Assembly: GCA_973895155.1 (NCBI GenBank)
Contig: OZ316894.1
Coordinates: 9,324,234 to 9,388,233, forward strand
Reading direction: 5' to 3'
DNA from: Marsupella aquatica
Taxonomy: Eukaryota > Plantae > Marchantiophyta
DNA: 64,000 nt
Under the pieces are notes generated by a model that saw only the letters and a list, made by a program, of their open reading frames with translations, was not told where the DNA came from and did not search any database. A program made the translations under genes and the position numbers. This document shows positions 1,023-48,820 of the stretch, piece by piece (the first letter of the stretch is position 1; the number at the start of each line of letters is the position of its first letter).

Positions 1023-1480
1023 CACAACTACAATTCTTGAGGGTTTAACGTAATATGAGTTGACGCTAAACACGACGTGAACTTACCCTAAAGCAAAGTC
1101 AATTACAACGACATGAAACTGGGCACGTAAAGAGCCCAGACCCAGACGATCTCATTTACGTCATCCACAACAACGTTTGTTGCCACGTTTTAAGTGACGT
1201 AACATTCTTAACGTAGTTGATTAAGACATTCCAAGGGGAAGAGTTTACTAAGAGAATTCTAGTTGTTTACGTCCTTTAATACGATGTCAGAGTTAATTAC
1301 GTCGTACATAACGTGTTTACACGAGGCCTTATAAACAACATTTAGGTGAGTGTGTGTCGTTGGTCATATGGAACAACGTAATTAACTTAACAACGGCAAA
1401 TGAGACGTTGGATTCTTCCCATAGACGAGGTATACTAAAATTATTTGACTTTTGTGGGGATGTTAATTCCGACGTATGAT
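1023..1480 (+). repeat. Left TIR and ACGT-rich subterminal region of the CACTA element
   Basis: The TIR is followed by more than a dozen ACGT cores (cacgacgtga, tttacgtcat, caacgtttg, tgacgtaac, ttacgtcgtac, gagacgttg). Confidence 0.85.
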
Positions 1481-1999
1481 GTTGCTTAGGGCTCCATGGT
1501 TATGTGGGCAGGTTGTGCGTTTTAGGGGGTAGGGAATACATACAAAATACACAATCAAGTGTTCAAGATCAATACATGCCCATTGTACACAGTTCAATCC
1601 TGGAATGTGGCACCACAACATATGGGTGAGATCAAAATAGAATTGGGAAATTTACAAAATTCAGGAGGAAGTCGTGCAAACAAAACCCTAAACCCTATGA
1701 GCCCCATGCAAAACTGAGGTTCTCTAGTTGATTTTAGATCTATATCAAACAGTGACATCTTGAGGGACCTCAACGCCTGTAAAATGGCAAACTAGGCAAT
1801 CTTGGAGTAGTGATGGTGGGAGAGCCCTTAGAAGGAAGGGGTTCCCACACTTGTGTTCCCCTTCACCCTTTGTGTGGTCCTCACATGTTTTTTTGTTCTC
1901 TTTCCCTTCCCCACCGTAGAAGGGCCACCGTAGAAGGGGCCCTAACACTTTCTTCCTTCCCTTTTTCTCTATTCTCACTTGTGAGGTTTCCATCCATAC

Positions 2000-2022
2000 C
2001 TAAACCCTAAACCCTAAACCCT
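2000..2022 (-). repeat. Short interstitial telomeric repeat (TTTAGGG)x3 / telobox
   Basis: ctaaaccctaaaccctaaaccct. Shorter copies occur near 1683, 12964 and 15844. Confidence 0.75.
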
Positions 2023-4191
2023 TTCCCTCTTGTGCTTGCTTTCAACGTGTGTACGGACCCTGGTTGTACGAACATTAGATTTTCGACCATCTCAAAATCT
2101 GGAGTCTACGGGCTTGTTGGAAAAAGCTCGCCGAGCTGAATCCAACCATGTGTCACATGCCAAAATGGAGCTAAGACGGGGGAGATACAACAGATCGCAT
2201 TTTTTTGAGAATACGAGAGTTTTGAGGCCGTACGGATGTCCGTACGGTAGGAAGTCCCGACTTTGCAAGAGAATGAGGAGGTAGCAGCACATACAGGGAA
2301 ACCGTGATCCATGTTTTTCAAAGCCAGGGTCCCCCTGGTGTTGTACGGACGAAACGGTGAGAGACGATGCCCCTTGAAAACTTAAACGATCATATCTTGG
2401 CCGTTTGACCTTCGTTTTGTGCACCATTTACAAAGCCGTGATCAGGAAGAGGAGGGCTCGTCAGATCTGTTTTCAGAAGTGGATTCTGAGAAAATTTTAG
2501 TTTCGACAATTGTAGGGGCTCCCTCCTTTTACGGCGGACCGGTGGTGGCGATCAGGAGGATTGAGGCTGGTAGGCAGGGTAGATAGATAGGATAGGAGGT
2601 GGTGGACTCAAGTAAGTCCTTGTTTAGTAGAGTGGTAGTTGGCACCGTCGGTCCCGTAGTTAGATTAGGGTTTTTCACAACGTGTGTGTGCCGCACGCTT
2701 TAGGTTAGTTTATCTCTTAGATGTTTTTGACGGCGCCTCTAGGGTTGCCGCCGTTGTTGCCACTCCATGAGGGGTGCTTTGGTGTTTTTTTTCAGTATTT
2801 AGGGGGGAGCCCTGTAGTGAGAAGGGGGGGAACTCAGTCTAGTGTTGGTTTTAGGGAAGTTAGCTCATAGCCAGAAGGGGAAATCGAGCCAGAGTAGTGA
2901 GGAGAGGTGTAGCGCTTGCCCCAATGAGACAGGAGTTGGGCAGGAGGCCGGGTTGTCCTTGCAATGTGTTACCACTTTTTGCCAAAAGATATGGATTTGG
3001 TTTGATTCCTCAAGTTTTGGTGTGGCGTTATTTTTTCCGGCTCACGATTGTGTTCTTTCCCCAAGAAGTGTCTAAGGAATCCTTGCACGGATTGGTCAAC
3101 CATGTGAGTAGGGGGGGGGGGTGGTGACAGCACTCCACCAGCGACCAGCAGAAGTGTGTGTATGGCGTAGTCCATGGGACTTGATCAAAAGCAGAGCGGC
3201 TAGTCGATAAACTTGATCAAAAATTACATTTCCGGGAGCAAAAATAAACATATTCATCCTACATGCAATAGAATCCTAATAGCGTCCCTCCACGTTCCCG
3301 TCATACAATAACAAACAATTTTAGTAGGAGTAAATACGTATTTGTCGTGTAAATCGTTTGATAAGCAGGTGACACTCTCCTTCCCTTGTCTCTTTTTCTC
3401 TCCCTCCCTCTATCTCTCCCTCTCTCCCTCCCTCTATCTCTCCCTCCCTCACCTCTCTCTCTTCCTCCCTCTATCTCTCCCTCCCTCACCTCTCTCTCTC
3501 TCCCTCCCTCTATCTCTCCCTCCCTCGCCTCTCTCTCTGTCAAGAGCCAGTGTGCCTGCACTGCCCTGCTGTCCGCAAGCTAGAGGTGCCTCCTCCTGGG
3601 TACCCTCCTCATCGGGTACAATGTCCACCTGCTCATCCTCTATGATGGGGCGTGCCACTAACCCCTTAGGAGGGGTCCAATCCACCTGCACATGACATAT
3701 TCTATGTATCAATACATGCTGACACAATAGAGCTTATACAACTAGCATTGCCAAGGAATGTTGTTGGATTCCTACTTACAGGGAACTCTTCTGGGGTGGA
3801 ATTCAACTTGGCCCACAATGCCGTAGGGCCATACCGCTTGGAGTACAACCGTTCCTCCTTGCTAGGCTCAGCCTCTCGTCCATACTTGCGCTTCTACAGC
3901 AAAAACTAGTAACGTCGTAAGGGACATTGTAATGTACGCCGCGGAATGGGACATACATTCAATAACGTCGTTTTATGCCACGTAAAGACGAACTACATAG
4001 TTGTAACGTCGATGAGAAGACGTTTCACTAAAAGAATGTCGTTAGGGTGTATGTAAGAAGGAGGCTACGATGTGAGGGACGATGTTACTAGCGGATTTTG
4101 TGACGTAAAATTGGAAAACTCGACGTTTGCAGCAGGATTTCACCGCAAGGCTTTGGTACGCACAAACAGCAAGGAAATCAGGATGGGCACT

Positions 4192-4502
4192 TGTTAGATA
4201 TTGCTCTAGTCTTGTGACTCATGAGCTAACCACAGTTAGTCTAACTTGGGTTAGGACTTAGCTAATGTTAGTGGTAGTGCTGGTGTGCATATAGCTAGGG
4301 CTGATGCCAGACCCTGGTGGAACTTAGGCTCATTGTTACGAAGCTAGTTGAGAGATAGGGAGAGCTTGTGCTGTGGATGCTTGGTATGGCCGGTCGGCCT
4401 AGAGTGCAGTAAAGCTCTTGTGTGTTCCTGTGGACGTAGCCTCATGTGGAGGTGAACCACGTATCTCTCTGTGTCGACTATTGTGCGTTAGATGGTTCAT
4501 GG
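4192..4502 (+). repeat. 5' LTR of the copia element, 3'-truncated, no PBS visible
   Basis: Matches 9636-9946 with about 11 mismatches in 311 bp (counted by eye, mostly transitions). The last ~33 bp present in the 3' LTR are missing. Confidence 0.95.
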
Positions 4503-5774
4503 TTCTCGTCGGCGGCGTTCACTTTTCTTGTTGGAAACGGCACCGGTTAAGTAAGTAATCGGCTTTTTAAAGTTAAGGGCTAATCTTTGGCTTTTGAGGG
4601 GGTTTTAAATGGGTTTTAGTTGTGTATATACATGAGGTGTATACACACCTCGTACCGGCCCCTCATACTCCCCCTTGTACTTGCCGTTTCCCCCTCGCTT
4701 CCCGTTAAACCTAGCGCAGCGGTGAGCTGCGCAGCACCGGCCGGCGCCTCTCGCGCACTCGCCCGCATTTCTCTTGACCTCCCGCTTAACTCAGCGCCCC
4801 AGCCCCTTGTATTCCCTCGCGGTTGCCGATTGGCCCCTCCCGAGCCCCTGTGCACCCGTATACGCGACTGCGTATGTAGCTGTGATCCAGCTGCCGCCTT
4901 CGCCCCCTTGTATTCCCTCCGCGGCCCCGGTTTTAAACGTAGGTGGCTGCGGCTCTACCTGCTTGTGCAACTGTTTTTTTACTCTCGGCCCCCGCCTCAA
5001 TACCCTGTACGCCTCCTAGCCCGTGGATGCACCTTTGTTATACCTGTATTTTTAGTATTTAGGGATTAGCACCCCTTTAGGGCCCCTTTTTATGCCATTT
5101 TTTCCTCTCTTTTGGTTGTCCCTTGTGTTGGGACCTGCCGCCCTCCGTTTTAACCGCTCCAACAAGGGGAACGGTCCCCTATGAGACTTGTCGGACTGTG
5201 CGGGAATATTCCCCAAAAATAGAGAGCTTAGGGTTTAGGGCCGTCCGACAAAGATTCTGTCCGCCAAACGGTAACTTTTTTGGTTCTTTTTTGGCGAGGA
5301 CGTTGCCACTGGAGTTAGCAACGCTGTGCACCAATCACATCGCAATTTTGACGATGGGTTGTACTGGGTATTTTGGTTATTCTCCGAGGTGGTCAAAATG
5401 GGGGAGTTTCGCAAGGTTTTACCCACACCGACCAAAATTTGAATAACTTTTTCGTCGAATTTTGATTTTGATTTTGGCTTTCAATATTGGACTCCTAGCT
5501 TTGTGGGCTATGCGGCGGTGTTGAGTTTTGAGTTTTATGAGAAGTTTCAAAAAAAGACATTTTTTCGTGATTGTTTCATATGAGTGACTCGGAGGATACT
5601 GGAAGAATTGGCGTTGGTGGAGCTTCAGGATCAGGACGATCAGATGGTGAGTCTGAAAAGGAGCTGCTACCATTTGAGGAGGAACTAGTGACACCGGTAT
5701 AATCACCAGTGCGGCGTGCAGTGGAGGAAGTTGTATTACTACTAGAGCTATCGGTAGTAGGGAAGAAGAGGGAG

Positions 5775-8700
5775 ATGGCTAGATTTGGAGGAGTGAAGTT
5801 TGAGGTGGAGAAGTACAATGGTCGTACTGATTACTTGCTATGGGAGAAGCAAGTGAAGGGTGTTCTACGGGCCATGAGCTTAGCTCATCTGCTTTCATCG
5901 CGAGAGCAGTATGATGGAGAGGAGGAGATTTATGTGAGATAATGGAGACAGGAGTAGGTGATTGCTGTCAATGCAATGATGCTATATCTCAAGCCGCACA
6001 TCATCAAGCAGCTGGATGATTATGCAGATTGCGCGTCACTATTCAAGCTTCTAAGAGAGAAGTATTACCGAGAAGATGCGTCAGACCGGTTGTACAAGAA
6101 GTCTCTCTTGATGAGCCTCAGGCTCAAGGAAGGGAGCAAGATGCAGGATTACCTGGATGAGTTTGATAGTCTAGCGGTGGATCTGTCAAACCTGGAAAAA
6201 TGAGTTGAAGATGAGGATAAGGCCTTGCTTCTGCTAAGCTCCTTACCGCCGTCATATCAGGGCTTGAAACAGGTGCTCTTGTACAGAAATCTGAAGTCCA
6301 TTTCGTATAATGAGGTGGTGAGCTCTTTACTGTCTGATGATGCTCAGAAGAAGTTGGGTTAATCACAAACAGCATCTTCTTCTGGCACTGCGCTGAATGT
6401 GAACCGTGGAAGAGCAGCGCAGCGCACGAATGGGCAGAACAGGTTGAGATCTACATCATAGGGGAGATCTAAATCCAGAGGGAAATCGCAAGAGAGGAAG
6501 CCTTTTGCATGTTGGAATTGTGGCAAGCCTGGCCACATGAAAAGGGATTGTCAAGTAAAGGTCCGTACTGCATCTGCTAACGCGGCATCAAGCTCGCATG
6601 AGGTAGATTTACTCGATGATGATGACATATTGTGATGTCAAGGTTATGCTCTCAACGTAGTGTCAAATCCAGGTAGTGATGACTGGATTCTAGATAGTGC
6701 TTGTACTTTTCACATTTGCTCTATGAGAGATTTTTTTAGTTCTTACACGGATTCCAACGGGTTAGTGTTGATGGGAAATGGAATCCCATGTCAAGTTGTT
6801 GGACTTGGATATGTAAGATTTCAGATGTTTGATGGTGTTGTAAGAACGTTGAGGAATGTGAGACATATTCCCAACATGATGAAAAATCTTATTTCACTTG
6901 GAGTGTTAGAAGCAAATGGCCATCAGTGGAGTTCTGCTAATGGTGTCCTTCAGGTTTCAACTGGTACTAAAGTTGTATTGAAGGGAAAGAGACATAACAA
7001 TCTATACGTTTTGGAGGGCAGTGTAGTTTGTGATGAAGCCAATGTAACCTATCTCATGAGGAGACGGCCCGGCTCTGGCACTTTCGTTTGGGCCACATGA
7101 GTGAAAAAGTTTGGTTATTCTTTAGAATAAAGGATTACTTTCTAATTTATAATCTTGTAAGTTGGAATTATGTGAGCACTGTGTGTTAGGGAAGCAACAC
7201 AGGAAACCCTTTGGAGTTGGAACTCACACCAGCAAGGAGATACTTGAGTATATACATAGTGATGTGTGGGGTCCAGCCCCTACTCCCTCACATTCTGGAC
7301 GGTTGTAAGGAGCAGGGGATTACCCACCATCTCACAACAAGTTATACTCCTCAACAGAATGGTGTTTCTGAGAGACTCAACCGAACACTATTGGACCGCT
7401 CGAGGAGTATGTTGAGTCAATCATGTTTACCACATGAGTTTTGGGCTGAAGCTGTCAACACTACAACTTATTTGGTAAATTTTTCTCCATCCAGTTCTAT
7501 TGGATTCAAGACGCCATTTGAAATGAGGTATGGGCGTCCAGCAGATTACTCACATCTGAGGATTTTTGGATGTGATGCTTATGTGCTTACACCTTCCCAG
7601 CTGCGATCCAAGCTGGAGTCCAAGTCGAAGAAGTGCATTTTCCTTGGCTATCAGAAAGGTGTGAAGGGTTATAGGTTATGGGATCCAGTAACCTGTAAGC
7701 TAATTGTCAGTAGAGATGTGTCCTTTAATGAATCCAGATCATCAAAGAAGGGGGAGAGTTCTCAAGACTCCCATACTGACAAGGGAAAATCTCCCATCCC
7801 GGACCGGGTTGAGGGGGAGATTAGTCATGATGCCATTCATGATAGGAGAGATGGAGAAGCTCCGGGCTTGAAGCTGGTTCCTATGATGGAACAAGAGGAG
7901 TAGATTGTTGCTGGGGTACCTCAAATTCAACCAGCAGCAGTAGATCAGCCTGAGTCATCTACTAGAAGAACTTCAAGTTGTTCTACTAGAGCTCCTACCA
8001 GGTATGGTCAATGGGCAGACTCATCTAAGCTAGATGATATTGACATTGCACCTGATGATGATGACATGGCTTTAATCTTGGAAGAAGGAGAGCCGTCTTT
8101 GTATAGTGAGGCTTGTGCTTCAGAGCATAAGCATGAGTGGAATGCAACAATGCAGAGGGAGTTGCAATCTTTGAGTGACAACAAGACATGGGAGCTGGTG
8201 GAGCTTCCAAGAGGTCAGCAAGTGGTGGACAGCAAGTGGATTTACAAGTTGAAGGACAGTCCTTCAGAGGGTGGAGATAAGATCTACAAGGCAAGGCTTG
8301 TTGCCAAGGGGTTCACTAAGGAGAAAGGAGTGGATTACAATGAGGTCTTTTCACCGGTGGCTAAGTATTCCACAATTCGGATCTTGTGTCAGCTTGTTGT
8401 GCTTTTTAATCTGGTGATGGATCAGATGGATGTTGTTATTGCTTTTCTCTATGACAACTTGGAAGAGATGATCTTCATGAGACAGCTGATTGCTCAAGAT
8501 GAGACATGCTGATTGTGGCTAAAGATCAATCTGAGGTTGACAGTCTCAAGGCAAAATTGAGTTCTGAATTTAGGATGAAGGATCTTGGTAAGGCCAAGAG
8601 GATCTTAGGGATGGAGATTTTTAGGAACTCTGAAACTGGATAGTTGTGCTTGAGTCAAGGCCAGTATGCGAGGAAAGTATTTGCACGATTCAACATGGAG

Positions 8701-9439
8701 AACTGTAAGCCAGTGAGTGTTCTTTTAGCTTCACATTTCAAGTTATCATCGGCTTTCTCTCCTACAGATGCTGTGGAGAAAGGTTTGATGGCTAAGATTC
8801 CTTATGAGAAGGCAATAGGCAGTCTGATGTATTTGATGACTTGTAGTAGGCAAGGTTAGCAGATTCATGTCAAATCCAAGGAAGGTACATTGGGAAGCTG
8901 TGAAATGGATTCTCAGGTATGTGAGGGGAACACAAGACTATGGATTACTATTTTATGCCAGATCAGATAGAACGTTAGTTGGCTATGTAGATTCTGACTA
9001 TGGAGGCTGTCTGGATACAAGGAGGTCTACAACTGGGTTTGTATACACTCTTGGAGGAGGATGTATCAATTGGAAATCTACCTTGCAGAAGTGCATATCT
9101 TAGTCTACTACAGAAGCAGAGTATGTTGCAGCAGCAGAAGCAGCCAAAGAAGCAATTTGGTTGGATAAGTTGATCGCGGAGATGGGTTTAGAGCATGACA
9201 AAATGACTATAAACTGTGATAGTCAGAGTGCTCTTCACTTGGCTGCTAACCAGGTGATGGATAGCAGGGTGAAGCACATTGATATCAGGCACCATTTTAT
9301 CAGGCAAGCAGTGTCTGATAAAACTTTTGACCTAGTCAAGATTGATGGAAAGCTCAATCACGCTGATGCCTTTACCAAAGTGATTCCTTTGGAGAGTTTC
9401 TCAAGACACCGTGCTACTTTGTAGGTTTTGCAGTTGTAG
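5775..9439 (+). pseudogene. Copia gag-pol polyprotein pseudogene
   Basis: Gag MARFGGVKFEVEKYNGRTDYLLW, Zn knuckle CWNCGKPGHMKRDC, protease WILDSACTFH, integrase YTPQQNGVSERLNRTL, RT YKARLVAKGF...FSPVAK, RNaseH GYVDSDY...KHIDIRHHF. Many stops and frameshifts, with deletions near 7300 (integrase core) and 8490 (RT YVDD region). Confidence 0.97.
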
Positions 9440-9635
9440 TGCAAGTAGAGTTATTTAGCAATGTGTGACTATTTGTATATGGATTACTCATTCCTGTTAG
9501 GCTACGGCTTAGTTCTAGTTAACCCTTGTGGTTTTTAGGGGGAGACCTGGTTTGGTGATTGTCTAGAACTTCCCGCTGAGGATTCCATATGGTAGCATTT
9601 AGTTTAGTCCCCAAGACAAGAGTCAAGGGGGAGTT

Positions 9636-9979
9636 TGTTAGATATTGCTCTAGTCTTGTGACTCATGAGCTAACCACAGTTTGTCTAACTTGGGTTAGGA
9701 CTTAGCTAATGTTAGCGGTAGTGCTGGTGTGCATATAGCCAGGGCTAATGCTAGACCCTGGTGGAACTTAGGCTCATTGTTACGGAGCTAGTTGAGAGAT
9801 AGGGAGAGCTTGTGCTGTGGATGTTTGGTATGGCCGGTCGGCCGAGAGTGCAGTAAAGCTCTTGTGTGTTCCCGTGGACGTAGCCTCATGTGGAGGTGAA
9901 CCACGTATCTCTCTGTGTCGACTATTATGCGTTGGATGGTTCATGGGCTTGTTGTTACGAATGTCGTCTATGCTCAACA
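9636..9979 (+). repeat. 3' LTR of the copia element (344 bp)
   Basis: TGTTAG...TCAACA, directly after the polypurine tract and followed by the TSD. Confidence 0.97.
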
Positions 9980-11578
9980 GCACTTACATAGGTTGCGAGG
10001 AAGCCTCGCCATCCTCCCTGTCCCTAGAAATTGGTCACTACAAGCCGGCCAGTATGCTTTCGAGCTACTGTTGCTTTGTCCCCCATGCGCACTCGCTTTC
10101 CTATTGCCATGTCTGGGTCTGCCTCCAACTTGCTGACGATCATATTGAAATCAGCCTCAGTCATCCCTTCAGGTTTGTGGTACTCCCCTGTCTGCAAAGA
10201 TTTTGATTTTTGAACCTTGTTTTTCCACCTAAACCTTCTCTCTGCCAAGTGATTTACAATCTTTTGCCTCATGTGACGAAAGTCAATTTCTCTCCCATTG
10301 TGGAACCTAGCCTGCACATCATTAAGGAGTGTCTGCAATTTCTTGGTGTTATGTGACAAATCCTTCCAGGTTGTCCAACCCGGGCTGCAATGTTTTGCAT
10401 AGCAGTCTACACTCGATTGGTGAGTGCCTTCTCATCAAGAACATACGGTTTTGCATCAAAAGCTGCCAAAGTTATGGTCGGGAGCTCCTCTCTATTGCTG
10501 GGTTTAGTTGCAGCTTGCTGGGCAGAATTTGGTGCCTGAGGACAAGACGAATGTGACTATTGAGGTAATTGCCTCCTTCCCCTGTCCGCCTTTGGGTCTA
10601 CATCTACACGTCTACGCTCCTTTCCCTTCTCTTTTCGTCTTCTCCTATCAATGCTACTACTTTTGCTCCTAGAAGGGGATCTATGCTTTCTCTTCCTACA
10701 TTAATCCCGCGCCCCCATCCTCTGGCTCATATCTGTCATGTGGGATCCTGACCTGGCTTTTGATAGGAGTCCCAGAATGAACCTGAGAATCAAGCGCCAT
10801 TCCTAAGAAAGCTAGATCATCCCAACCATCATCTGGTAGCAAAGGGAACAAAGGTAGAGGATTCACTGAAGCCTCACCGAGGTCCCTCGAGCACTCTGCA
10901 GTGGGAATCTGTTCATCCTTGTCCATGGCAAGAGCATTGGCCTTGATATTGCCTAGGTACTCCAAAAATTGGGACTCTTTGCTTCCCACTCCTCCCAAGT
11001 ATCTCCAACTTTGATTGAAAGCGTTGATCAATGGGTGGGTGGAAAGCAAAGCTTGACACACCTTCTCCAACTCCTCTGAATCGTCCATGGCCACCTTGTC
11101 TGCATCAAAGTTCACACTGAAAGGAAGATAGGTTGGTCTAGACATTGGAAGGGCAACTGTCAAACGTAGAGGTCAGAATTGAATGAGAGAAAGAGAGAGG
11201 AGGGGAGTTGGGGTCCAAGATGTTGAATGTGCCTCACATTTGACTATTACCCTGACGTTTTCCTTTGGAAAATGCCGAGCTACACGCAAAACCACAAAGA
11301 ACCCCCGTTCTCCCAATGTAATGTCGTTTTTAACAACGTTCTTTTCATAAACCCTAAATAGTACGTTCTGGGGGATGACGTAAACGTCATAGTACGTCGT
11401 AAAATAGGGGGTTACGCTGTTCTGGGTTTATATAAACGACATTACATTGGGGTTTACGTAGGGTAGGAAAACATGTGGGGTTTATACAACGTATAAAACT
11501 CCATAAGTTTTTAGGGCTTGTTGCCATTATTTGAATGGTACTAATTGGTATCTGGCATGTATGTTGTTGCAGGGCCAT

Positions 11579-14500
11579 ATGGCAACATATGGGTCTTCCT
11601 CAACATACTATGACCATCGTGATGGAGGTACTTGTCACTGACGTAGACATGGTCATCATAGTAGGGAGAGGGATGAGTCGTTGGGGAGGAGGAGAGATCA
11701 GTCATGGGGGGGACTAGTGATGAGCCCCAGGAGAGGAGGAGCCATGGATCCAGGGATAGGAGGAGGGATGGGTCACGACGGAGGAGGAGGAGGGATGAGT
11801 CGCCAAGGAGGAGGGATGTGTCCCTAGGGATGACGAGCCATGACTCAGGAGGGATCACTCCCAGGGTAGGAGGAGGGTTGATCCCCTCAGCGATGAGTCA
11901 CGGGAGAGGAGGAGGGATGACTCACCATCTAGGCGCCATCGGTCCAGGCATCACCAACGCAGACATTGGCGGGATAGAAGGAGAGATACTAGATCCTTGC
12001 GTCCTGCACACCAGTATCACGACCCATCCACGCTGAGGAGGGATTTGGAGACGCTATGGCTGCCATTCAGGGGATTGGACCTATCCGTAAGATGCCTTGC
12101 CCATGTAGGCGGTGCAAGGGAGTTGTATGTCACGAGAGGACCACTGTCCTTAGCCATTTAGGGATCCATGGTCGTTATATACCGCCCACACAAGAGGTAA
12201 TTATAAGGTTTAAACATTTCAATTATTTAGTTGCTTTCTTTTTTTACCTAACTAGAAGTTGTCTAGGCTGCAATTGTTCATGCTTTCATACGCAAATTCT
12301 GAAGTTGTCCTGCTGGTCACATGTGGACAGATTCCTATTGTAGTGCCTTTGGCTGTGGACAGCATGAGAGAGATTGCGAGGCGTGCGATCACCCCTCTAG
12401 TACCCCCATCAGCATTGTCTGCCACATTGAGGGCTATAGACTGTGTTTTTGATGGGATTGTGGTGCAAGTGCACCTTATTGAGAGGGGAGTAGTGGTGAC
12501 CACTAGACTGAGGTCGATGGAGTCTCATCCACCTAGGATAGTGCCGCCACGTTGTCCTTTTCTTGATGCACCTTCTTTGAGAGTTGCGAGACAGTTGCGA
12601 GGGAGAGCCTTGGATATCATAAAGGACTCCTTCCCTGCCCAGTTTGGACTCCCCGACGACCTTCCAGTCAGGGAACCTATCATAGTCTGGGGTCGGCCGT
12701 GGGCCCTCCTCCCATCCACATTGGGACCTGACGTTGGCCTTGGCGTTTTTGCACTTGTGGATATAGTGGTCCCTCATGGGTGTGCCCCTGACGATTTACC
12801 TCAGTTTGGCCCAGAGATGGCAAATCTTGTCTCGACAGTGTCCGACCTTTGGTCGATATGGCATGTCACTGAAGATGGACCCTAGGTATTCTCGGATGGA
12901 TGGTTATCCACCTCGCATGGGAAACTTGGTGGGCTACATCAATAGCATTGTTGGGTGTCGGCGTTTAGGGTTTAGGCCAAACGCTGAGTGGCACGAGTAC
13001 CATGATGCGTGTCACCCACGTTTGCCCATGGCATGCACACATTATGTCTTGACGCATGCCACCCGCACCATTAGAGCAGGAGATTAGATTTTTGTAGATT
13101 ATGATTGGCATTGATCACAACTTTATATGTACATAACCTATTCAATACATGACATTCCTTGCACATATCATTATTCAAGCTTCATTGCACCCTTCATACT
13201 CTTTGTCTAATTATGAGTTTGCATTGGATATGCTTACTTATATATGTAGGATGGTGCCAATATTACTCCTACACCGCACCCATCCATGATGACTACATCA
13301 GCCCGTGCCTTCCACACTTGAGCCACATTACATTTCAGTGACGACGATGATGATGATGTCCATGATGTGGATGATGATGTGGATGATGATGATGATGATG
13401 TGGACGATGATGATGATAAGTACCATGATGCATATGATGTCGAGTTTGATGATGTAGTAGAGGATGAGGGGCCTGCACCTATTCTTGAAGAGGAAGCTTT
13501 TGCCCACCTGGTTGACATTCACTTTGGACCACATGCACCTGACGCTGATCACCCTACTATGGAAGTTAGTAGACCAGGAGGATTGGGACCAGCTCGAATC
13601 AGAAGCCAAAACTCCACTATTCGAGGGTTCTCCAACCTTGAGGTAGAGAAGCTTACGACTTCTCTAATTGTGAGAGTGTAATTGCAGGTAGTACCTCATG
13701 TTCTATTTTGATGAACTAATTGTGGTTTTGCAAATGCAGGTTGGGTGCCACTCTCTTGATGTTAAATTTGCAAGGAGTTTTCAATGGTTCGGATGTCCAT
13801 ACAGATGCACTATTGTAGTTGTTCCACAAGAAATTCTTGCCCCAACCAAACACTCTTCCTGGATGTGTGAGGGAGGCTAAGAAGTTACTTGTCTCCATTG
13901 GATTGGCTTTGGAGTCTATCCATATGTGCCCCGTTGGTTGCATCTTGTATAGAAAGGAGTATGCTGAGCACACTCATTGCCCAAAGGAACGGTGTGGCCT
14001 TCCACGATATCGACCAGACACCATTGGGGACAAAATTCCAGAGAAGGTAAATTACTGATGCGAACTCATGTGATTAGCGTCCACATACTCAGGTGCAAAC
14101 TTAACATCCAACTCAACGAAGCACATTCACATCTTACGTCTTCAAATTCGTTGATTTATTTATTAACATTGTATTAACATCAATGTGAATTGAATACGTC
14201 TTCTCAGGCGATGTAAACCCATTTTACGTCTCTTCGTGTGACGTAAAGTAACGTCTCTTTGTTGTTTACGTCATAGAAGACGTGGCTAAAATAAGATAAC
14301 GTGTTCGTAAATGACGTTAGGGTTCTAATATTGTCGATTCAAATGGTTTCACTGTTGTTATTATAGGTGTTGAGGTATTTCCCTATCACACCCTGGCTGC
14401 AACAGTTATATCGACAAAAACGCTTATCCACACTACAGACTTGGCATGCAGAGAACAAATCTCCACCAAGGATTATGAGGTACCACCAAGATAGTCCAGC

Positions 14501-17218
14501 ATGGAAACACATTGATATGACTTGGCCTCAATTTTCCCAGGAGCCAAGAAATGTCCGGCTGGGGTTGGCAATAGACGGTGTAAACCCGTACAAGCAACGG
14601 CGGAAGCCTAAGTCCATTTGGCCGGTTCTCTTGATTAATCAGAACATCCCTCCATGGTTGGCAATGAAAAAGGGCCATGTCCTCCTCCTTGCTATCATAC
14701 CTGGTTCTGAGGCCTACAAGAATCCAAATGTCTGCTTGGTACCAGCTTATGAAGAGCTACAAAACCTGTGGGAGGTTGGGGCACCTACCACAGATGTCAC
14801 TCGGGCTCCGAGCAATGGGAGGATATTCCAGATGAGAGTGATGATCACCCATTGCACCACCGATGGTCCAGGTAATTCACAAGACAACCTAGAGCATTTT
14901 TCTAATTGCATTGTATTGTACAATGTAATAGAGATAATGACATATTCTATGGACCCAAATTATCATGTGCAGGTATGGGAACAATATCTGGTTTGAAGGT
15001 GGCAGATTATTCAGCTTGCCCTTCATGTGGTCCTGAGTTGCATGGGAGGTACTCATCACTATTGCCCAAAACCACATATGAGGAAAGTAGGGTCCACTTG
15101 CCAATGGATGATCACTTGCGGCGAAACACAACTCATTGGGTAGAAAGTGAGTTAAGACCATGTCCCAATGGCCCTTCGGCTGAAGGGCAAATCCAATTGG
15201 CAGAGATGGTGGAGGCAAAGTTACTCAAACCCAAAGATTGTGGAGTAAATCGCCGCTTAGCTTTGTGGGACTTGCCTTATTGGAGGGTAAGTGAGACAAA
15301 GCAAAATAATGGTTAATTTTTCTAATTGCAAATTGGAGTCTTCACTGAAACTATTGCTATTGAGAAATTTATTAGTGAACTCCAACATTATTGTTTTTTC
15401 ATGCTCCAAATCCTCCAGGTCCGGTGGTTGTTGGACCCCATGCACATTGAAGTGAATGTTGCTAAGAATTTGTTGAAGCACATTTATGGACGGAATGATA
15501 CTCGTCAAGTCCGAGAGGATGTTGAGAATGTAGGAGTTGTGAAGTCTTGCTGGATGACAAGTACTGGGGGGAAACCACCTGCTCCTTGGGTATTGCCAAA
15601 GGAGACATTAAAGCAAATTAATGCGATGATTTGTGAGATGAAATTCCCTAGCCACTATGGAGCCGACTTTCATGGGTGCACTAGCAGAAATGACCACATG
15701 CCCCCAATAGGGCTAAAGTCTCATGATTATCACAAGTTGATTCAACATGTGCTGCCTGCTGTCTTGTGTTGTTGTGATGACTTGCGAGAGAGGCGCCTAC
15801 TTCAACTCACCATTTACGACATGCGCTCTATTTTCCTAAGTTTAAAACCCTAAACCCTAAGTTTAAAACTAGAGACTTGTTGTTTTGGGCTTAATTCTTT
15901 TCATTACCAATATTATAATTAATTAAGTTGGTAATTTGGGCAACCGCTTGGTGTGATTGTGATATTAAATCAATTGGATTGTATGAGGTGGAATATAGGT
16001 GGGTATGCGCTAAGGAGATAAAGGAGTGTGAGATTCCTTTGATGAGGGAGAGGTCAGCACGTGTGATGTGCAATATGGAGAAGGTGTTCCCTCCTTGTCT
16101 CTTTGACATGCAATTGCATTTGCTATGTCACCTCATGGATGAGGTAGCTATTGCTGGTACAGTTCATGCGCGGTGGATGTATTGGGTTGAGCGCTTCATG
16201 AAAGTGCTCAAGTCCATGGTGCGTCAACCAGATCAACCAGAGGGAGCATGACAACAGGATACATTATGTCTGAGTGCTCAGGGGGGATGATAGGGAGTTT
16301 GGACCCTACAACTCCCACAACTTGGGAAGAGGCACAGGATGAGGACAATGGTGGGTTGCGCTTGATGGGTGCGTCAAAGAAGCGGTCACTACATGACGAC
16401 ATTTTTTGACGGCAAATCCACAATTATGTGTTGGAAAACCGCCCTGACATGTCAGCTTGGAGGGAGTTGTACAGGTATGAGGCATTTAGATTGTGAAGTT
16501 TGACTTGTAGTTGGGGAGTACTTTTTTGTCCATAGGATACTGCAAATTTCTAACAATATTTGTGTATACAAATGCCAGGGCATGGAGGGAGCGACAACCG
16601 GTTATTGCAGGACATGTGCACACAATTGCATCATTCTGCGTATGGGCATTGGAGCACATGGAGAGGGTCCTGGCAAAGCATGGGCCCACATCCATCCCGA
16701 TTGATCTTCAGAACATCATTAGGGGGCCATCGATGTGGGCAACAACTCATACACACATGTATGAGTCGGGGCACCACTTTCGGACTTGGAGGACAGACCA
16801 TATGAAAAAGACAACATGTAACTCACAAGTGTTCATGTTGACAGACCGAGGTGATGTTGAGGTTCCTTATTGTGGCACTGTATTGGACATTTTAGATGTT
16901 GACTACTGTGTTAGAGGTGTGGTGGCACAAGTCCATCATACCACTACTGTGTTAGAGGTGTGGTGGCACAAGTCCATCATGTCACCTCTTGTGAGAGCCA
17001 CCATGGTGAAAGATGAGTGTGGATTTTATCGGGTGGACATGACTCGTGTGTCACCAAGCGGGACTGAGGTTAGTGATACCATAGTTTTTCCTAGCCAAGT
17101 GGATCAGTGTATTATGGTGCCCATGCAAACTATGAGAGGGTGGTCCATTGTCAATCCCATCTTCCCACGACGGAGGAAGGGTTTGATGCAATCAACAATT
17201 ATGGACGATGCTGATTGA
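11579..17218 (+). pseudogene. CACTA transposase (TnpD/Tnp2; transposase-associated domain, Transposase_21, DUF4218/DUF4216-like regions), multi-exon, decayed
   Basis: Predicted exons: 11579-12196 (R/S/D-rich, then CPCRRC..V.SHL..HG), 13250-13642, 13740-14046 (LPQPNTLP..IHMCPVGCILY), 14367-14871 (LRYFPI..DSPAWKHID..RNVRLGLAIDGVNPY), 14973-15286, 15419 to about 15836 (DPMHIEVNV, GLKSHDYH), 15999-16474 (FPP..HL..HARWMYWVERFM), 16579-17218. Several stops and frameshifts. Confidence 0.93.
12331..13114 (+). pseudogene. SET-domain (lysine methyltransferase-like) exon carried inside the CACTA transposase gene
   Basis: SET motifs in the expected order: GLGVFALVDI; MDG..RMGNLVGYINS; PNA; ATRTIRAGD*IFVDY; natural stop TGA at 13112-13114. 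One frameshift near 12810 and one in-frame TAG (13085-13087) at the conserved Glu position. Confidence 0.85.
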
Positions 17219-17675
17219 TATGACCATCACCACTGTCATGATGCTTTGGATGCATGTATATTGGCCGTAGCCATCCTTTACATATATACAGATCTGGTTG
17301 GACAGTCCTCATTTACGTCATTTATATAATTAAACGTCCCATTTGTAACACCCAAAATGACGTAGAAAACCCATACGTCGTCACAAAACCCCACCAAAAA
17401 TGACGTAAACCCCTAACTTAACGTCGTTCTTATGTAGCCCTACACAACGTGATACTAAATTGTGACGTAAATACACAGCCCTAAAGGACGTACATTGTGG
17501 AACGTCGTATTATGATATGTAAACTATTTTGGGACAACATGGAGGACAACGTAACGTGTGAGGGGCGACGTTACGCACAATGCACACACTGAAAGGGCAC
17601 ATTCACTGGCACAATCAAAATAATACAATCATGGGTGTCTTTATTAAGGTGATATGAACACACAAGTTATACATT

Positions 17676-18400
17676 TCACAACACATTGTCTTTCCACCAA
17701 AGCAATCCTAACCTATGCGAATCATGGAACCTAAACCCCACCACCAGCTGCGATTTGAAGTATTGTTGCTTAAGGGGTCCCTTCACCAGACCAGTAGTAC
17801 TCCTCATCGGCCTTCCTTGCTTTGTAGGAATCACGCCTCTGGCTTTGGTTCCATTACTTCCGCTCAACCGCTTCCCCAACCTTCAGCCTTTCAGCCTCAA
17901 CCTCAACTGCACAGCTTTTCTTGCAATCGTACAATACAATCCCAAGCTCAGTAGGAGATAACTCACATTTAGAGAAGGTAGGTGGATATGCCTCACCATC
18001 ATCAAGCTTGGGCAAATCATCAAGGATCTCATGATCACCCGGCTGCAACAAGAAGTCTCCTGGATCCAACTCCTTGTTAGCCAGAATGGAGCACTCAACC
18101 CAACGGATAGAAATGAAATGCACTGTCTCCGCAAAGTGCTCAATCAATCCAGGGTAGTCACTGAAGTGCTCAACAACATCTTTCCAAGTATAGGCCAACA
18201 AGTAATCTATCTCTAGGTACACAACTTCTCAATAACACCTCCACGACAAAAGAACCCACGCACAATCTTGTCCTCTTCACCGAGAGGAAGGAAGCAACAA
18301 TGCACATCCTTGAATAACTTGTGCACCATAGCTTAGCACTTTCTATCCCCCACAGAAATTTCTCCCTACTCAAGATGAGAGCTCACTCAAAAACTCTTGA
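17676..18400 (-). pseudogene. Unidentified accessory ORF near the right end of the CACTA element
   Basis: Protein-like minus-strand frames (YLEIDYLLAYTWKDVVEHFSDYPGLIEHFAETVHF...) linked by frameshifts and stops, bounded by two ACGT islands. No family recognised. Confidence 0.45.
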
Positions 18401-18559
18401 ATGCAAGTCTTGGAAGGTCTTGGCAGCTATGAACCAAAAGCCACGGGTAGAAAACCCAAGTCAGCAAGGAATTTGTCATTTACATCAACCAAAATGATGT
18501 CTTGCACGTATCATGTGGCAGAGTAACTCTCAAACGCCGATGAGAGCTCCATAATATAT

Positions 18560-18859
18560 TTAACCTTGCAGATTCCTACGTACTTTTAAACGTCGTCCAA
18601 CAAATTGTATATTATGACGCTCTGGACGACGCAATTAATTTTACCTCTTTCTAGACGATGTTTTATTACCCGGATGAGGAGACGTTAATTTTTGGTCGTA
18701 TCACACGACGTAAAAATAGTTCCGATTGTCGTGCCATATTCTACGACGTTGGCCTAACGTCTTCAGCTATATGGAACGACGTCTTCTTCGACGTGATCCA
18801 ATTGAACGTCTACGTTGAAGACGTTCATAGGGCACGCAACGTTAAAAATTGTAGTTGTG
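18560..18859 (-). repeat. Right ACGT-rich subterminal region and TIR of the CACTA element
   Basis: Dense ACGT cores (aaacgtcgtcc, cgacgttgg, gaacgtctacgttgaagacgttc) ending in aattgtagttgtg. Confidence 0.85.
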
Positions 18860-20650
18860 CAACTCCCAATGCCAATCTAAGTGTTTTGTGTGCGTTACCA
18901 ACTTAGCTCAGTGCCTTTGCTAGTGCTATGTTTCATACAAGTATCTCCATATTAGTCTCCACCAGATGGTTTTTCCGGAGGCCTGGGCCATAGAAGAGCT
19001 CAATGTCGGAGTAAGCAATGTTGGAACTAAGTGGAGTGGACTACAACAATGCAAACAAAGCTGTAGCCACTGAAAGACAACAAAATTTGGAGCTTGTAAG
19101 CTATGTAAAAGTAAGCAAGTGGTGGAGAGCAAGTGACATAGTCTTATTGAGCTAGTGACATAAAAACATTGCACCCATGACATAGTCTGATTTGTAGGAT
19201 GGTTGTAATTTATTTTAAGCATAAAACTAGTGATTTTGTGAAGTTATCCCCTTACATACATTCAGCAAAACAGAAGGACTAAGAAGCAAGCTTCATTTTA
19301 ATAATTGAAGGACTCAGAAGCAACCAGCTGGAAAGTGAAGGGAGGAAATATGGAAGTCCAAGGACAACTGAAGAACGAGAGGAAAAAGGAAAGGCTGGAC
19401 AAAAGGAAGACACAAACAATAAATTGAGCCATTTCTTCTCTCGACCAAAATTTCTGTTCTACAAAAAAGTTGAGGTTTGCATCTTCAACTTTTTGGAAAA
19501 CGGTGGTATTATTCTTGTATGCATCACGTTCTCACTCCAAATGACTAAACTCGAAAAACTTCTGTAAATACTTCATGACTAACTCGCTGTACTCTTGTAC
19601 ATTTCTTTCCAGGTTTAACTCGCTGTACTCTTGTACATTTCTTTCCAGGTTTGTTTACGTGAATGGCGGATCTGAAATCTTTCTGTGAGGAGAGTTTTAA
19701 TACGATTTGAGACAATGATCGTTTAGGGACACGCAAGTGTACGCAGTGTGAAATTGCTCCATTGAGACGATGATAGTGAGGGACACGCAAATGCATGTAG
19801 TGCGATTGGTGAAATTGCTTTATTGGGTTAAGTGGAACATCATAGCATTTACTCCGCAGTCATAGGTTGGCATAATTGCGATGCCTCATTCCAGTTTCAT
19901 CATATCAAACATAACGACGCAGTAGGACCTGCCATAGCGAGATCGTTCACATCGCTACCGCCTTTTACATAAGCGTGACCAGTATCCGACATTGCTCTGA
20001 TATATGCCCTCTCTTTGCCATGAATTCTTAGGTGTCTCATTGCAACCCAAAACTTACTACTACAACTACTGGTCCATCCAAGTTCCTGCTATATACAAGT
20101 GATAGGAAAGACAAAAAACTAGAGTCCGATGGAAAACAGCGTGATGACAATCATCCCTAAAATCCATGTTCGTTTAAGGCCTTGCTATGCTGGTGGCTGT
20201 TGAAAGAGATCTCTATGCAGCATCAAATTTTATACAAGATGAGATGGTGGACCTGGAACTTCTTGAGTTCCAACAGTGGGATTCCAACACGGTACACCTA
20301 AAGTGGGTCTCAGAACCGCTTAGTTCCAACAGTAAAATTCCATCAAAGTAGACCTGACTATTTAGAGGAAACAAAATTGAATCCATCAGATCAAATCATG
20401 ACAGGATAATATCCGTTCTATTCGGTCACTGGACCTAATTTATACAGCTTTCCTCAACCCCATCCTGAAAGGTCCCTCTGATAGCGTGTGCTTGGAGGGG
20501 GAGGAAAAAGGATGGAGTTCTGTACAAAGACTAGACATTCACTGTCAAAGAGCTACAGATGACAGCTTTGTCTTCAAATGGGTTCTTAAGAAAAGGACCT
20601 GCACATTTTTTGCTGCAGCCCAATTCCAAAAATTGCCTACCAATCCTGAT

Positions 20651-23600
20651 CTACCTAATCAAAAATTGATGATTCGACTGAGAAGATTGTGCTTGCCAGT
20701 GCGCATTCCCACCCATATGAACCTGATAACCATTTGTGCTATATTGTTGAACACGGCCATCTGAGCCAGGGGGATGTCTCCGTCCCCTATGATTCTGTCT
20801 ATACCGCTCCGTTCGTTGACCTTGGTGACCACCTGAAGGAATGGATGGAGAAGGCGATGTATGATGGCTTGTTGGCCGACTTTCCACTGCAGGGTAGGCT
20901 GTCTGAGAAGGCTCCACGAATTCTGCATAGCCTGTATTCAAAGTTTGTGGGTATTGAACTCTACGCTCCGCATCTATTGTCGGAAAGTCCACCTCCCTGT
21001 GGACATAACCACCTCCGCTATAACCAACATCAGGAGGGTAAGAGGTCAGAATATCTTCTTTCCTGTATCCAGAGTCCCAGTCCCTGTACCCAGAACCAAA
21101 ATCGGCGTAACCAGACATTGTATGGCCAGCCACCTGCTTCATGCTATGACCAACAGGGATAGATCTGGAGTCGAGTGGAGGATATTCCATTGTATATCCG
21201 TTCATACTGGGCGTCTCATAACGACGCCCTGAATATCCACCTCTGTTCTCACCCTGGGCATGGGAATCAAAACCACCACTAAGGTTTGCAATTCTAGTTG
21301 ATTGTCCCACCTTCCTGTATCCATTGGCTCTGTGGGCAGGACCCTGTCCAGCTTGATTTTGCTCAGCATAAACTGGTGCAGATGGCTTTTGACCCCAAGT
21401 CCCAGCGTTACACAAAGAACTATCTGCGAAACTTTCATGTCCTCTGTTACCTGGAAGATTGGTTCTTCTCTCATTCGCAGGTTGCGACCAACCATTTCCA
21501 CTTAGCCAGTTTCCGGTACTTAGTACCGTCACACCGTGATGTGTACCTCTGTGCCTTTGCCTAATAGATCCAAAGAGATAAGCTTTCAGGTCTTTGGCTT
21601 CCAGGACATCATACACAGGATCCTTAAGGTTGGAAACAGTCGACTGTAAAACCTGATAAATAAGCTCGAACTCTTTCCTAGAAACAGACCGAGCCACATT
21701 TTGAGTACGATCCGCGAAGTCCTCCACCTGGTATTGTAAACATGTTTGTAACGATAGTGTTTAGAAATGAGGGTCTAGGAATTTGCAGCATTTCACAATT
21801 CCTTAGACCTAACAAGCGATAATACATATGAAGTCGATGACCTTCCAGGAGCAAGATTGACAGAAAATCTCATCCTTTCGGCAATCCAACCGGACAGGTG
21901 AGGTCTTACAGAAATGCAGCCGATATGATTTTTTGGCCAGATCTTCGAGATCCACCTTCCTTCATACGTGCTGGAACACAACCCCTGCCCCCACATGCTT
22001 TCCACAGCTAACAACTGCGCCACAGTTCGGACATGGAATTTTAGAATTTCCTCCAATAATTCAACAGGGAGTTCAATGGCCCACTTGAGGACCAACACAA
22101 CGTCAACAAAACAGATCACATTAACTCCACTGTGCATACCCTAACCCCCTCCTCTCTTTCTCCTTCGTAGTGTCAGGGCAGGTCCCCAAACATAACCCGC
22201 TTGCCAGGGGTGTTCCAAGTCTCATAATCCGCAGCCAGTCTCGCCTAGTCTCATAATTTCAAAATCTAATGTGAAAAAACAGTGTCGGGGTTACGCTTGC
22301 TAACCCATGGCTGTAACCGCCTTGGACTCACCACCCTCGGCGATTACAGCCCATACCCCCCTAAAGGCCATGGTTTACCCTACACCAATATCATTTGTGA
22401 GAATATGCAAAGAGTACAAATCAAAGCTGGAACAATCCTGGAAAATACCTTGAGAAAAAACGAACCAAACAGTTCTGGGACACTTTCAGTGTTGTCCTTC
22501 CCAAATCCCCTCTCCTTATATTCCTTTACGCGAAGTTCCACAATTTGAAGACAGCTTCCAATTGCCGGTAAATGCAGCCCTGCTCTACCACAAGCCATCC
22601 GCGTTATCGACCGTAACTAGCATAGAAGTTTTTACCACAAACGGCCTGTGTGCAGAAGCCCTGGTTCAAGTATTATGGAGACTCAAGCATATCTCTATCC
22701 AGTCACAAGTACGACATTGGCACATTGTTCTGTAAAACAACCCGACATTATACCAAACCCCCCAATATCATGGAGAAACCGGGGACAAGCAATAAACTCA
22801 CCTTCCATGAAGACCGAAAATGGTGGAAGAATTGCAGGAGAACGAGTCTGTTGCACAGTTGCAAATTATGAAAAAAATGTAGCATGATCATTACACAGAT
22901 CCAAGGTTTGCTACACCTTCTTCTGCACGGACAGAACCATAATCTTACAATTTTCTAAACAAACATAAATTCATACATCGACCCTGTAGTCTTCACAGTA
23001 GGCCAGAGGATTGCAAACCCGTGGGAAATGCATTGAGAAGCAGTAAGTCAGCACGCACTCTTCAAACCGCTTAACGAGAGAGAAGAGCGAATGATAATGA
23101 CACAAGCTTATATCACTGCACCATGCTGTCTCCCAACGAATCACAGATAGAAGACAGTGCAGCTTTTCGAATTTTAAACAGGTAGTATCCCTCATTGTCA
23201 TAGGCTTCTCATTGCTATAACTTAACCTTGCCTCTTGTGATCTTGCTCAGCTCAGAGTTTATGGTTAGAGTGCAGAGACCTCGCCCTAGTCGTCCCAGGA
23301 AACTTTGGTTCTAAAGATATAGATATCAGTTTGACAGACGTGACATCTGCTAGTAAGCAAAACCATCAAAAGGATTGTCCCTCCATGCGACACGAGTAGA
23401 AGATCTCGTTACCTGCAAATGAAATGCAACAAGAAGACATATTGACAAGGAATTTAAGGTCCCATTTTTGGAGCTGTTGACATTATGCTTTTTGGCCCAA
23501 GCTTTCACCTGCACACATAGCCAAACATCAGCTCTTGAGAAACGCTAAGAAATTATTGGACGTGTCATACTCGATCTAAAGAAGGATGCATTTTGATGAG

Positions 23601-42773: not shown

Positions 42774-43121
42774 TGTTAGGATTTACTCTTAGGTCTAGAG
42801 TAATGACTGTACCGTAGTTAAGGCTAACCTTAGTCGCAGACTTGGTTAGGTTAATCATGTTGTGCACACTCTATACCCAAGCGATGTTTGCTTGGAGAGT
42901 AGGAACTTAGGCTCATTGTTACGGAGCCAATTGAGAGATAGGAAGAGCTTGCGCTGTGGATGCTTGGTATGGCCGGTAGGCTTAGAGTGCAGTAAAGCTT
43001 TTGTGTGTTCCCCTGGATGTAGCCTCATGTGGAGGTGAACCACGTATCTATCTGTGTGACTCTTGTACGTGCGTTGGATGGTTCATGGGCTTGTCATTAC
43101 GATTGTCATCTATGTTCAACA
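42774..43121 (+). mobile_element. Solo LTR (348 bp) related to the copia element at 4192-9979
   Basis: TGTTAG...TCAACA, flanks GAGAT / GAGGT (4 of 5 TSD match). From ggaacttaggctcattgttacgg onward it closely matches the copia 3' LTR. Confidence 0.9.
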
Positions 43122-48456: not shown

Positions 48457-48820
48457 GTGAGTAGTGCAAAGTTTGAGGTGGTGAGGTTTGACGGGCGGTC
48501 AGATTACTTGCTATGGGAGCGGCAAGTCAAGGGAGTGCTGAAAACAATTGGTTTTAGCAAGACACGTAAGCCAAAACCTGACACGGTTGGAGACAATGGC
48601 TGGAGTGATACCCAGGAGATGGCAATGCTCACTGTCATGCTCTACCAACCACAAGTCATCAAGCAGGTGGACAATCACTAAAATTGTGTGTCTTTATTTA
48701 CAATACTCAAGGAGAAGATCACCAGAACGAGCTGTCAAACCGACTCTTCCTATCGTTGAAGTGATGAGTTTCAGGATGAAAGAAGGTGATGCAAAGATCC
48801 AGGATCACAAGACTTGGTAG
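48457..48820 (+). pseudogene. Copia gag remnant
   Basis: SSAKFEVVRFDGRSDYLLWERQVKGVL...MSFRMKEGDAKIQDH, clearly similar to the gag at 5775. Frameshifted and truncated. Confidence 0.9.

Follow-up and report, generated by a model that had tools for sequence, protein, structure and literature searches.

Whether transposons can set histone marks of their own is a question raised by a stretch of the genome of the liverwort Marsupella aquatica (assembly GCA_973895155.1, contig OZ316894.1, positions 9,324,234 to 9,388,233), hereafter called the window, which comprises 64,000 nucleotides numbered from its first letter. An original prediction, made from the letters alone, held that a CACTA transposon in this window carries, at 12331–13114, a gene for a SET domain of the histone lysine methyltransferase type, and that this gene belongs to the element. 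Judged by its sequence relatives, the element is a member of a family of CACTA/EnSpm transposons with a conserved SET exon and with named relatives in liverworts, and the SET frame is element-encoded and old, not a one-off or fresh capture of a host SET domain group (SDG) gene.

A SET domain encoded within a CACTA/EnSpm element

The element spans positions 1023–18859 and is bounded by a perfect 13-bp terminal inverted repeat (TIR), CACAACTACAATT, at 1023–1035 and 18847–18859, with a 3-bp target site duplication (TSD), CAA, on both flanks (1020–1022 and 18860–18862); the left TSD and TIR together occupy 1020–1035 on the plus strand. It starts with CAC and ends with GTG, as is described for the TIRs of EnSpm elements (5'-CAC..GTG-3'; PMC12730594). 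A Pfam scan of its open reading frames (ORFs) matched the signature domains of the TnpD transposase, namely Transposase_21 (E 1.5e-36), DUF4218 (E 1.1e-22), and Transpos_assoc (E 9e-4). The predicted TIR- and TSD-bounded element was thus recovered, and the name CACTA holds for the EnSpm type given by TIR, TSD, and TnpD but not for the termini, which read CACAA rather than the strict CACTA pentamer; the pentamer is present in two relatives, L005 and L006.

The SET motifs follow one another on the plus strand within 12256–13114. GLGVFALVDI (12736–12765) is encoded in the frame that opens at 12256, and one frame on come DGYPPRMGNLVGYINS (12899–12946), PNAEW (12977–12991), and ATRTIRAGD (13058–13084), followed by a TAG codon (13085–13087), IFVDYDWH (13088–13111), and the stop codon TGA (13112–13114). 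Scanning all six frames of the 64 kb gave a single occurrence for each of two C-terminal SET-like patterns. The C-terminal piece of the window protein matched PF00856 at E 0.008 with 17 bits, which does not reach the cut-off of 22.4. The read-through window protein had 22 homologs at 35–54% identity among 1814 candidates, the closest named ones being from the liverwort Calypogeia fissa, and all 22 matched PF00856 (E ≤ 0.04), eight of them above the cut-off. A profile search among 1.84 billion representatives yielded 158 clusters at E ≤ 0.001 and 89 at ≤ 1e-10, including liverwort proteins that combine a piece of the SET family with Transposase_21; a broader, word-based profile search gave 16 matches and added little. 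The window protein matched no sequence of a solved structure, and no canonical SET protein of solved structure matched the family profile below E 0.48.

P0002, which like P0008 and the SET frame of metagenome locus L003 is intact, shares 55% identity with the window protein; it was modelled with AlphaFold2 from a 72-row alignment, and the model had a predicted local distance difference test (pLDDT) score of 88.9. Foldseek returned 265 PDB matches to this model at E ≤ 0.001, and every listed row was a SET-domain entry. A wide structural search scored yeast Set1 at Z 12.6 (root-mean-square deviation 2.6, 124 aligned residues), SET8 at 12.5, and Ezh2 at 12.3; because these values are tied, no target lysine can be read off. 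The identity of the model to solved SET proteins was 12–23% only. The model indicates that the domain encoded at 12256–13114 is a SET domain, with a SET fold in the intact homolog. Small viral SET proteins were also near by fold (identity up to 27%) and by language-model features, which is a lead only, and three scans of viral contigs found no viral relatives.

Conserved Gly, Asn, Glu, and Tyr positions in solved SET enzymes serve S-adenosylmethionine (SAM) binding, the lysine channel, and catalysis. Among alignment rows 23–59% identical to P0002, the Gly of the first motif (G129) was kept in 70/71, the downstream Asn N217 in 71/71, E252 in 64/65, and the C-terminal Y257 in 60/63, with Y158 in 70/72 and Y176 in 68/72. 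The N-S motif has its Asn (N204) in 65/72 rows and Ser in place of His in 70/72. In other words, the GxG, N(H/x), and ExxxxY motifs, including the putative catalytic Tyr, are conserved in 90–100% of rows, with Ser for His. INS instead of INH, which had been read as divergence of this copy, was accordingly rejected as a sign of decay and is a family trait. Given the conserved residues, we consider SAM binding and lysine methylation by intact copies fairly probable. The scanned homologs contained no flanking chromatin domain and no pre-SET or post-SET zinc module; because flanking domains are missing, the profile reaches E 0.48 at best, and the Z values are tied, the family does not appear to belong to any canonical plant SDG class (E(z), ASH1, TRX, SUVH, or ATXR).

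The SET frame of this copy is broken by a frameshift at 12814–12817 and by the TAG at 13085. Alignment with homologs placed two losses in the conserved stretch LFPFYGPxYSxxxW, at about 12800–12817, one of them short and in frame, the other shifting the frame. The letters absent from the window at 12814–12817 are carried by homologs and related contigs, the missing stretch being in frame at 12815 in two contigs of run X3, and homologous proteins have Glu at the position of the TAG. Met 12776 was rejected as a start codon because the window has lost letters at 12814–12817 that homologs carry in an intact stretch. The original prediction was right about the SET domain, the order and place of its signatures (12736–13111), and the pseudogenized state of this copy. 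The two ORFs that it joined are separated by the frameshift at 12814–12817, and Met 12776 is no start; its frame ends at the correct stop codon but opens at the acceptor at 12255/12256, not at 12331.

Conservation of the SET exon beside the transposase

In metagenome contigs, 210 pattern matches led to 17 loci, which fall into four lineages: 14 loci of one family (88–99% identical), L002 (72–83% identical to them), L001, and L013. With queries from the window, TnpD was found immediately behind SET in seven of the 17 loci, which are all loci with at least 786 bp of downstream sequence; the other ten have at most 645 bp. When the L003 frame was used as the query, the start of the TnpD frame was detected in 10 of the 17. 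A Transpos_assoc exon lies ahead of SET in L001 (E 5e-4), and L005 and L006 both start at CACTACAACAA with different flanks. Furthermore, three gene models of Riccia sorocarpa (P0107, P0110, and P0144) fuse a piece of the SET family to Transposase_21, and in four proteins (P0057, P0072, P0085, and P0107) a CxCxxC precedes the SET part within the same chain. Long fusion proteins (882–2515 amino acids) were not found by search, which is weak evidence. A phylogenetic tree was constructed from 73 SET segments, comprising the rows that span profile positions 135–250 and four added segments, without canonical host SDGs. The window protein stood beside Calypogeia proteins in a 49-row clade (98/93) that also holds Riccia proteins, and more distant branches hold Ginkgo Gb_21150 and Calypogeia CAM6103004.

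The ratio of nonsynonymous to synonymous substitution rates (dN/dS) between L002 and seven members of the main family was 0.25–0.34 by the Nei–Gojobori method (NG86) and 0.24–0.34 by maximum likelihood over approximately 184 codons, in pairs that all share L002 and include post-insertion decay. Comparison of the C-terminal half of the window protein with L001 yielded 0.24, with dS (1.8) close to saturation. Within the main family, nine pairs with few differences ranged from 0.28 to 1.06 (NG86); values near 1 are expected there because young copies drift after insertion. These ratios indicate that the SET exon is kept under purifying selection between subfamilies. The original prediction had named a SET profile and fold, further copies linked to Transposase_21, and dN/dS among copies as the points on which it should be judged. 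The profile and fold were matched, many copies in several lineages lie beside TnpD, and dN/dS is below 1 between subfamilies (0.24–0.34), all of which agrees with its view of an element-encoded domain rather than a recent SDG capture. Nesting within a host SET clade, a further point of the prediction, was addressed indirectly, by the profile search.

Some distant members of the same family have other, Cys/His-rich N-termini, namely P0117 (Ginkgo Gb_21150) and P0084/P0191 (Calypogeia fissa CAM6103004 and CAM6081997), and could represent either domesticated copies or the cargo of different elements. P0179 (1024 amino acids) has two SET domains and a GNAT acetyltransferase; its first SET domain contains IDGDP..NLAGY.N, resembling the family, and at a weak match of E 1.4e-4 it is a possible outgroup.

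The SET frame as a likely alternative exon of the transposase gene

The first coding exon of the transposase unit (11573–12196, plus strand) contains a frameshifted Arg/Asp-rich tract and then a zinc-finger-like Transpos_assoc piece with CPCRRC at 12098 (PF13963, E 9e-4, under the cut-off). This zinc-finger exon runs up to a phase-0 GT donor at 12197. Two acceptors follow, likewise in phase 0: the SET frame begins behind the AG whose last letter is 12255, and an acidic exon leading into TnpD begins behind the AG whose last letter is 13249. The SET exon (12256–13114, plus strand) consists of a conserved N-terminal part, the SET motifs, and the stop codon. Three divergent families have it at this place, with the N-terminal zinc-finger exon before it and the remainder of TnpD after it. 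L001 and L005, whose SET proteins are approximately 35–45% identical to the closest members of the window family, each have one phase-0 donor and two phase-0 acceptors, the acceptors in these loci and in the window being picked from one to three AT-rich AG candidates each with our own filter; L006 duplicates the L005 sequence and was hence left out of the phase count. In related contigs, the match to the window ends at 12201 in runs X2 and X3 and at 13115 in runs X1, X2, and X3, directly beyond the donor and the stop codon, respectively. Neither joint (12196 to 12256 or 12196 to 13250) was found among the matches listed in related contigs, from runs whose type is not on record.

This arrangement suggests that the transposase gene probably includes the SET frame as an alternative exon, rather than the SET frame forming the separate gene that had been predicted. 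Because the phases of the donor and both acceptors agree, we think it quite probable that one pre-mRNA gives either a zinc finger joined to SET, with the SET exon as the terminal exon, or a zinc finger joined to TnpD, with the SET exon skipped. The acidic exon and the next TnpD exon (13250–14050, plus strand) contain stop codons at 13319–13321 and 13816–13818, and the TnpD exons with Transposase_21 and DUF4218 (14367–17218, plus strand) contain a frameshift near 16245 and a 41-bp tandem duplication at 16902–16983. The transposase of this copy is therefore dead, like its SET frame.

CpG-rich motif blocks and a proposed mechanism

Six non-coding blocks of the element are rich in CpG and GACGTAA, with observed/expected (o/e) CpG ratios of 1.34–1.84 versus 0.37–0.52 in the coding parts of the element. 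They comprise a 5' block at 1023–1500 (o/e 1.34), a candidate binding-site cluster; an internal block at 3900–4190 (1.57); a block between divergent genes at 11240–11500 (1.40), which is likely a promoter region; one within a TnpD intron at 14055–14366 (1.66); one behind TnpD at 17300–17600 (1.36); and a 3' block at 18480–18862 (1.84, plus strand) that includes the right TIR and TSD. Of the 16 GACGTAA occurrences in the 64 kb, 14 lie inside these blocks, and a sliding scan of the whole window for at least five ACGT per 300 bp returned these six regions only. In L005–L007, blocks rich in TCGC/GCGA are found at the corresponding places. Clustered CCVTCGCAAA motifs are the binding sites of TnpA in Arabidopsis, where it reduces methylation via host demethylases (bioRxiv 10.64898/2026.08.24.746577), and VANC proteins bind motif arrays in non-coding regions (PMC10398659). 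Because the six blocks resemble such target clusters, they suggest a sequence-specific targeting system; the involvement of SET is not implied by them.

L005 (6266–9130) and L006 (6220–9130) have a canonical CACTACAA left end, a minus-strand gene without a Pfam match, and TCGCAA-rich non-coding blocks. TCGCAA in these blocks resembles the CCVTCGCAAA target of Arabidopsis Spm1 TnpA.

We propose that the shared zinc-finger exon would be spliced to the SET exon, giving a predicted lysine methyltransferase, and that the shared N-terminus or an element-encoded DNA-binding protein would bring this enzyme to the GACGTAA clusters. There it would write a mark on the chromatin of the element that opposes H3K27me3, H3K9me, or DNA methylation, and the element would thereby counter the silencing of cognate copies. 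PRC2 represses transposons in bryophytes, as shown for Marchantia (bioRxiv 10.1101/2022.10.24.513474). If the enzyme is active, its recruitment to the GACGTAA clusters and a mark opposing silencing would be about evenly balanced against other outcomes. The whole chain, in which an active SET isoform is recruited to cognate copies and writes an anti-silencing mark, is the reading that we favour among those considered, and we put it forward tentatively. A VANC-like role of this sort, on the chromatin or transposase of the element, had been suggested in the original prediction and stays a proposal here. It is rather doubtful that early-diverging land-plant CACTAs encode, by alternative splicing, a zinc-finger-SET writer guided to CpG motif clusters that methylates histones on their own copies against silencing.

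Several observations weigh against this proposal. The family lacks post-SET cysteines, and many members stop 3–5 residues beyond the last Tyr and are therefore without the C-terminal flank, which in solved SET enzymes helps to close the active site. The tied top Z values mean that structure does not separate activating from repressive SET classes. All seven loci with TnpD behind SET belong to one family of 88–99% identity, and the seven low dN/dS values share a partner. The Riccia fusions and the CxCxxC chains are automatic gene models and no proof of transcripts. The splice acceptors were chosen with our own filter, and Met 12364 aligns with a Met in five close homologs, so that a stand-alone SET protein is possible. 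The six blocks were picked by eye before testing, and TnpA-type binding alone suffices to explain clusters of CpG-containing motifs. TnpA in Arabidopsis acts via host DNA demethylases while H3K9me stays (bioRxiv 10.64898/2026.08.24.746577).

Other explanations assign the domain a different role. An active SET isoform might have a substrate other than histones, be it the transposase itself, some other protein of the element, or a silencing factor of the host, and thus tune transposition or stability. The near structural matches include SET7/9 (Z 11.6), an enzyme with non-histone substrates, its TAF10 complexes were also matched, and the shared N-terminus would put both isoforms in one complex; however, Set1, SET8, and Ezh2 score equal to or above SET7/9, and we regard a non-histone role as unlikely. 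The absence of post-SET cysteines, Ser for the His of the NH motif in 70/72 rows, chains that often end right after the last Tyr, and matches to inactive SET/PR folds (PR domains) at Z 10–11 would instead suit a non-catalytic binder or decoy of histone tails, which steers insertion to marked chromatin or shields nucleosomes from PRC2/SUVH enzymes. Such a binder is unlikely, since the Gly, Asn, Glu, and Tyr positions are kept in 90–100% of rows among proteins 23–59% identical to P0002, and SET8 and SET7/9 are active without post-SET cysteines.

The enzyme might also write a repressive mark, damping the activity of the element itself or silencing host defence genes, in the way that chlorovirus vSET methylates H3K27. 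Ezh2 is tied for the top structural match, and small viral SET proteins are near by fold and language-model features, but the viral contig scans gave no relative, and the blocks at the element ends and between genes retain CpGs, which fits long-term low methylation better. We consider a repressive writer improbable. Far less credible is passive capture of a host SET gene fragment by a Pack-CACTA element followed by neutral drift. This copy is broken and several within-family pairs have dN/dS near 1, as such drift would leave them; however, the position and phase of the exon are alike in families 35–45% identical, dN/dS between subfamilies is low, the motifs are conserved over 72 sequences, and the family profile is far from solved canonical SET proteins (no match below E 0.48). 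On these comparisons, a recent, copy-specific, neutral capture is largely refuted.

A compact SET exon under selection makes the question of whether a transposon can write its own histone marks testable in plants with good genetics, such as Marchantia and Physcomitrium. The plant anti-silencing factors TnpA and VANC act by binding DNA motifs, and TnpA needs host demethylases (bioRxiv 10.64898/2026.08.24.746577; PMC10398659). If the proposed anti-silencing mechanism is true, no plant transposon before this one would have been shown to place a histone mark on its own copies, and the enzyme that it encodes would represent a hitherto undescribed class of small, programmable SET enzymes. Furthermore, members of the family are annotated as 'SET domain-containing protein' in genomes such as that of Riccia, and therefore host SDG gene counts can be inflated.

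Other features of the element and its surroundings

A Copia long terminal repeat (LTR) retrotransposon (4192–9979, plus strand; TG...CA ends, TSD GCACT, LTRs 96.5% identical over 311 bp) is nested in the CACTA element and is a later insertion. On the minus strand, a decayed accessory gene at 10024–11175 consists of ORFs 10699–11175 and 10024–10431; it is helical and TnpA-like by eye only. A further decayed minus-strand ORF lies near the 3' end (17854–18228) and could not be assigned to a kind by Pfam; the Pfam scan gave no match for this ORF or for those at 10024–11175. A single-sequence model of minus-strand ORF 10027–10431 was weak (pLDDT 57.5; best fold-search Z 5.2), and tblastn found no match between the minus-strand ORF of the element and the minus-strand gene of L005. 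Short runs of plant-telomere-like AAACCCT occur within the element at 1683–1697, 2002–2020, and 15845–15860.

An older repeat (508–956) adjoins the element and has an inverted copy, 72–81% complementary, 47 kb away at 47461–47898. Directly beside the element on the other side is a minus-strand host gene (20651–25100) for a non-canonical poly(A)/uridylyl nucleotidyltransferase (PF22600, E 3.5e-19, 23605–24285). Relatives of the nested Copia include a diverged LTR-like copy at 42774–43073 (64%) and a gag-like piece at 48469–48539 (79%). A 299-bp unit is repeated three times in tandem at 44687–45584 with 99–100% identity, which reflects a very recent duplication or an assembly artefact. The regions 27434–29140 and 62187–62900 contain a dispersed repeat of approximately 300 bp in several copies and an array of 18–19-bp purine-rich units. 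The C-terminal end of minus-strand ORF 56224–56649 resembles what we take to be formyltetrahydrofolate deformylase.

Comparison with known systems

The closest parallel is the red-algal Plavaka of the EnSpm/CACTA superfamily, whose accessory gene PAG2 contains a PF00856 SET domain (bioRxiv 10.1101/2025.02.11.637652). Both belong to the same superfamily and have kept SET as long-term cargo, and PAG2 is proposed there to modulate chromatin. As described in that preprint, PAG2 is a separate gene in which an N6-adenine DNA methylase is fused to SET, beside a Plavaka-type transposase, whereas the element in M. aquatica has a minimal SET domain in the first intron of a plant TnpD (Transposase_21) gene; the comparison of the two here is one of layout. 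The N6-adenine methylase domain PF01555 was absent from the window ORFs and from the 60 homologs scanned. DNA transposons encoding SET lysine methyltransferase-like proteins also include HarbingerS and Phytophthora MuDR families (Repbase Reports 2014, as cited in PMC12730594) and Helitrons with SET captures (as cited in bioRxiv 10.1101/2025.02.11.637652). These belong to other superfamilies, the MuDR hosts are oomycetes, and the citing passages mention no shared-exon arrangement.

Like maize En/Spm and Arabidopsis Spm1/Spm3, the element is a CACTA transposon that appears to produce an accessory protein and the transposase from one alternatively spliced unit (bioRxiv 10.64898/2026.08.24.746577). 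Spm and this element also share family-specific clusters of CpG-containing motifs and anti-silencing, the latter being proposed here. TnpA is presented there as a helix-turn-helix DNA binder that has no enzymatic function of its own, works at the termini, and brings in host demethylases; unlike TnpA, the alternative product here has an enzyme fold, and the motif blocks are also internal. VANDAL Mutator-like elements with VANC likewise have non-coding regions rich in motifs, both terminal and internal, and these motifs are family-specific; however, VANDAL belongs to the Mutator superfamily, and the account of VANC in PMC10398659 describes no SET domain. No VANC-type Pfam domain was found in the element ORFs scanned. 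In fold and motif order, the SET domain resembles Set1/MLL, SET8, E(z), SET7/9, and small viral SET proteins. It differs from canonical SET enzymes in its low identity to the solved ones (12–23%), in N-S for N-H, and in having no pre- or post-SET zinc module.

No SET exon in a land-plant CACTA was found in the literature searched, and Repbase Reports, subscription journals, and the supplements of the Plavaka and Spm preprints, which were outside its scope, may list such elements. The view of SET as unusual cargo in the original prediction thus holds for land-plant CACTAs but not for the EnSpm/CACTA superfamily, given Plavaka PAG2, nor beyond it, given HarbingerS and oomycete MuDR. SET cargo in DNA transposons is already known as such; the present window adds a land-plant CACTA family with CACAA termini and with motif blocks.

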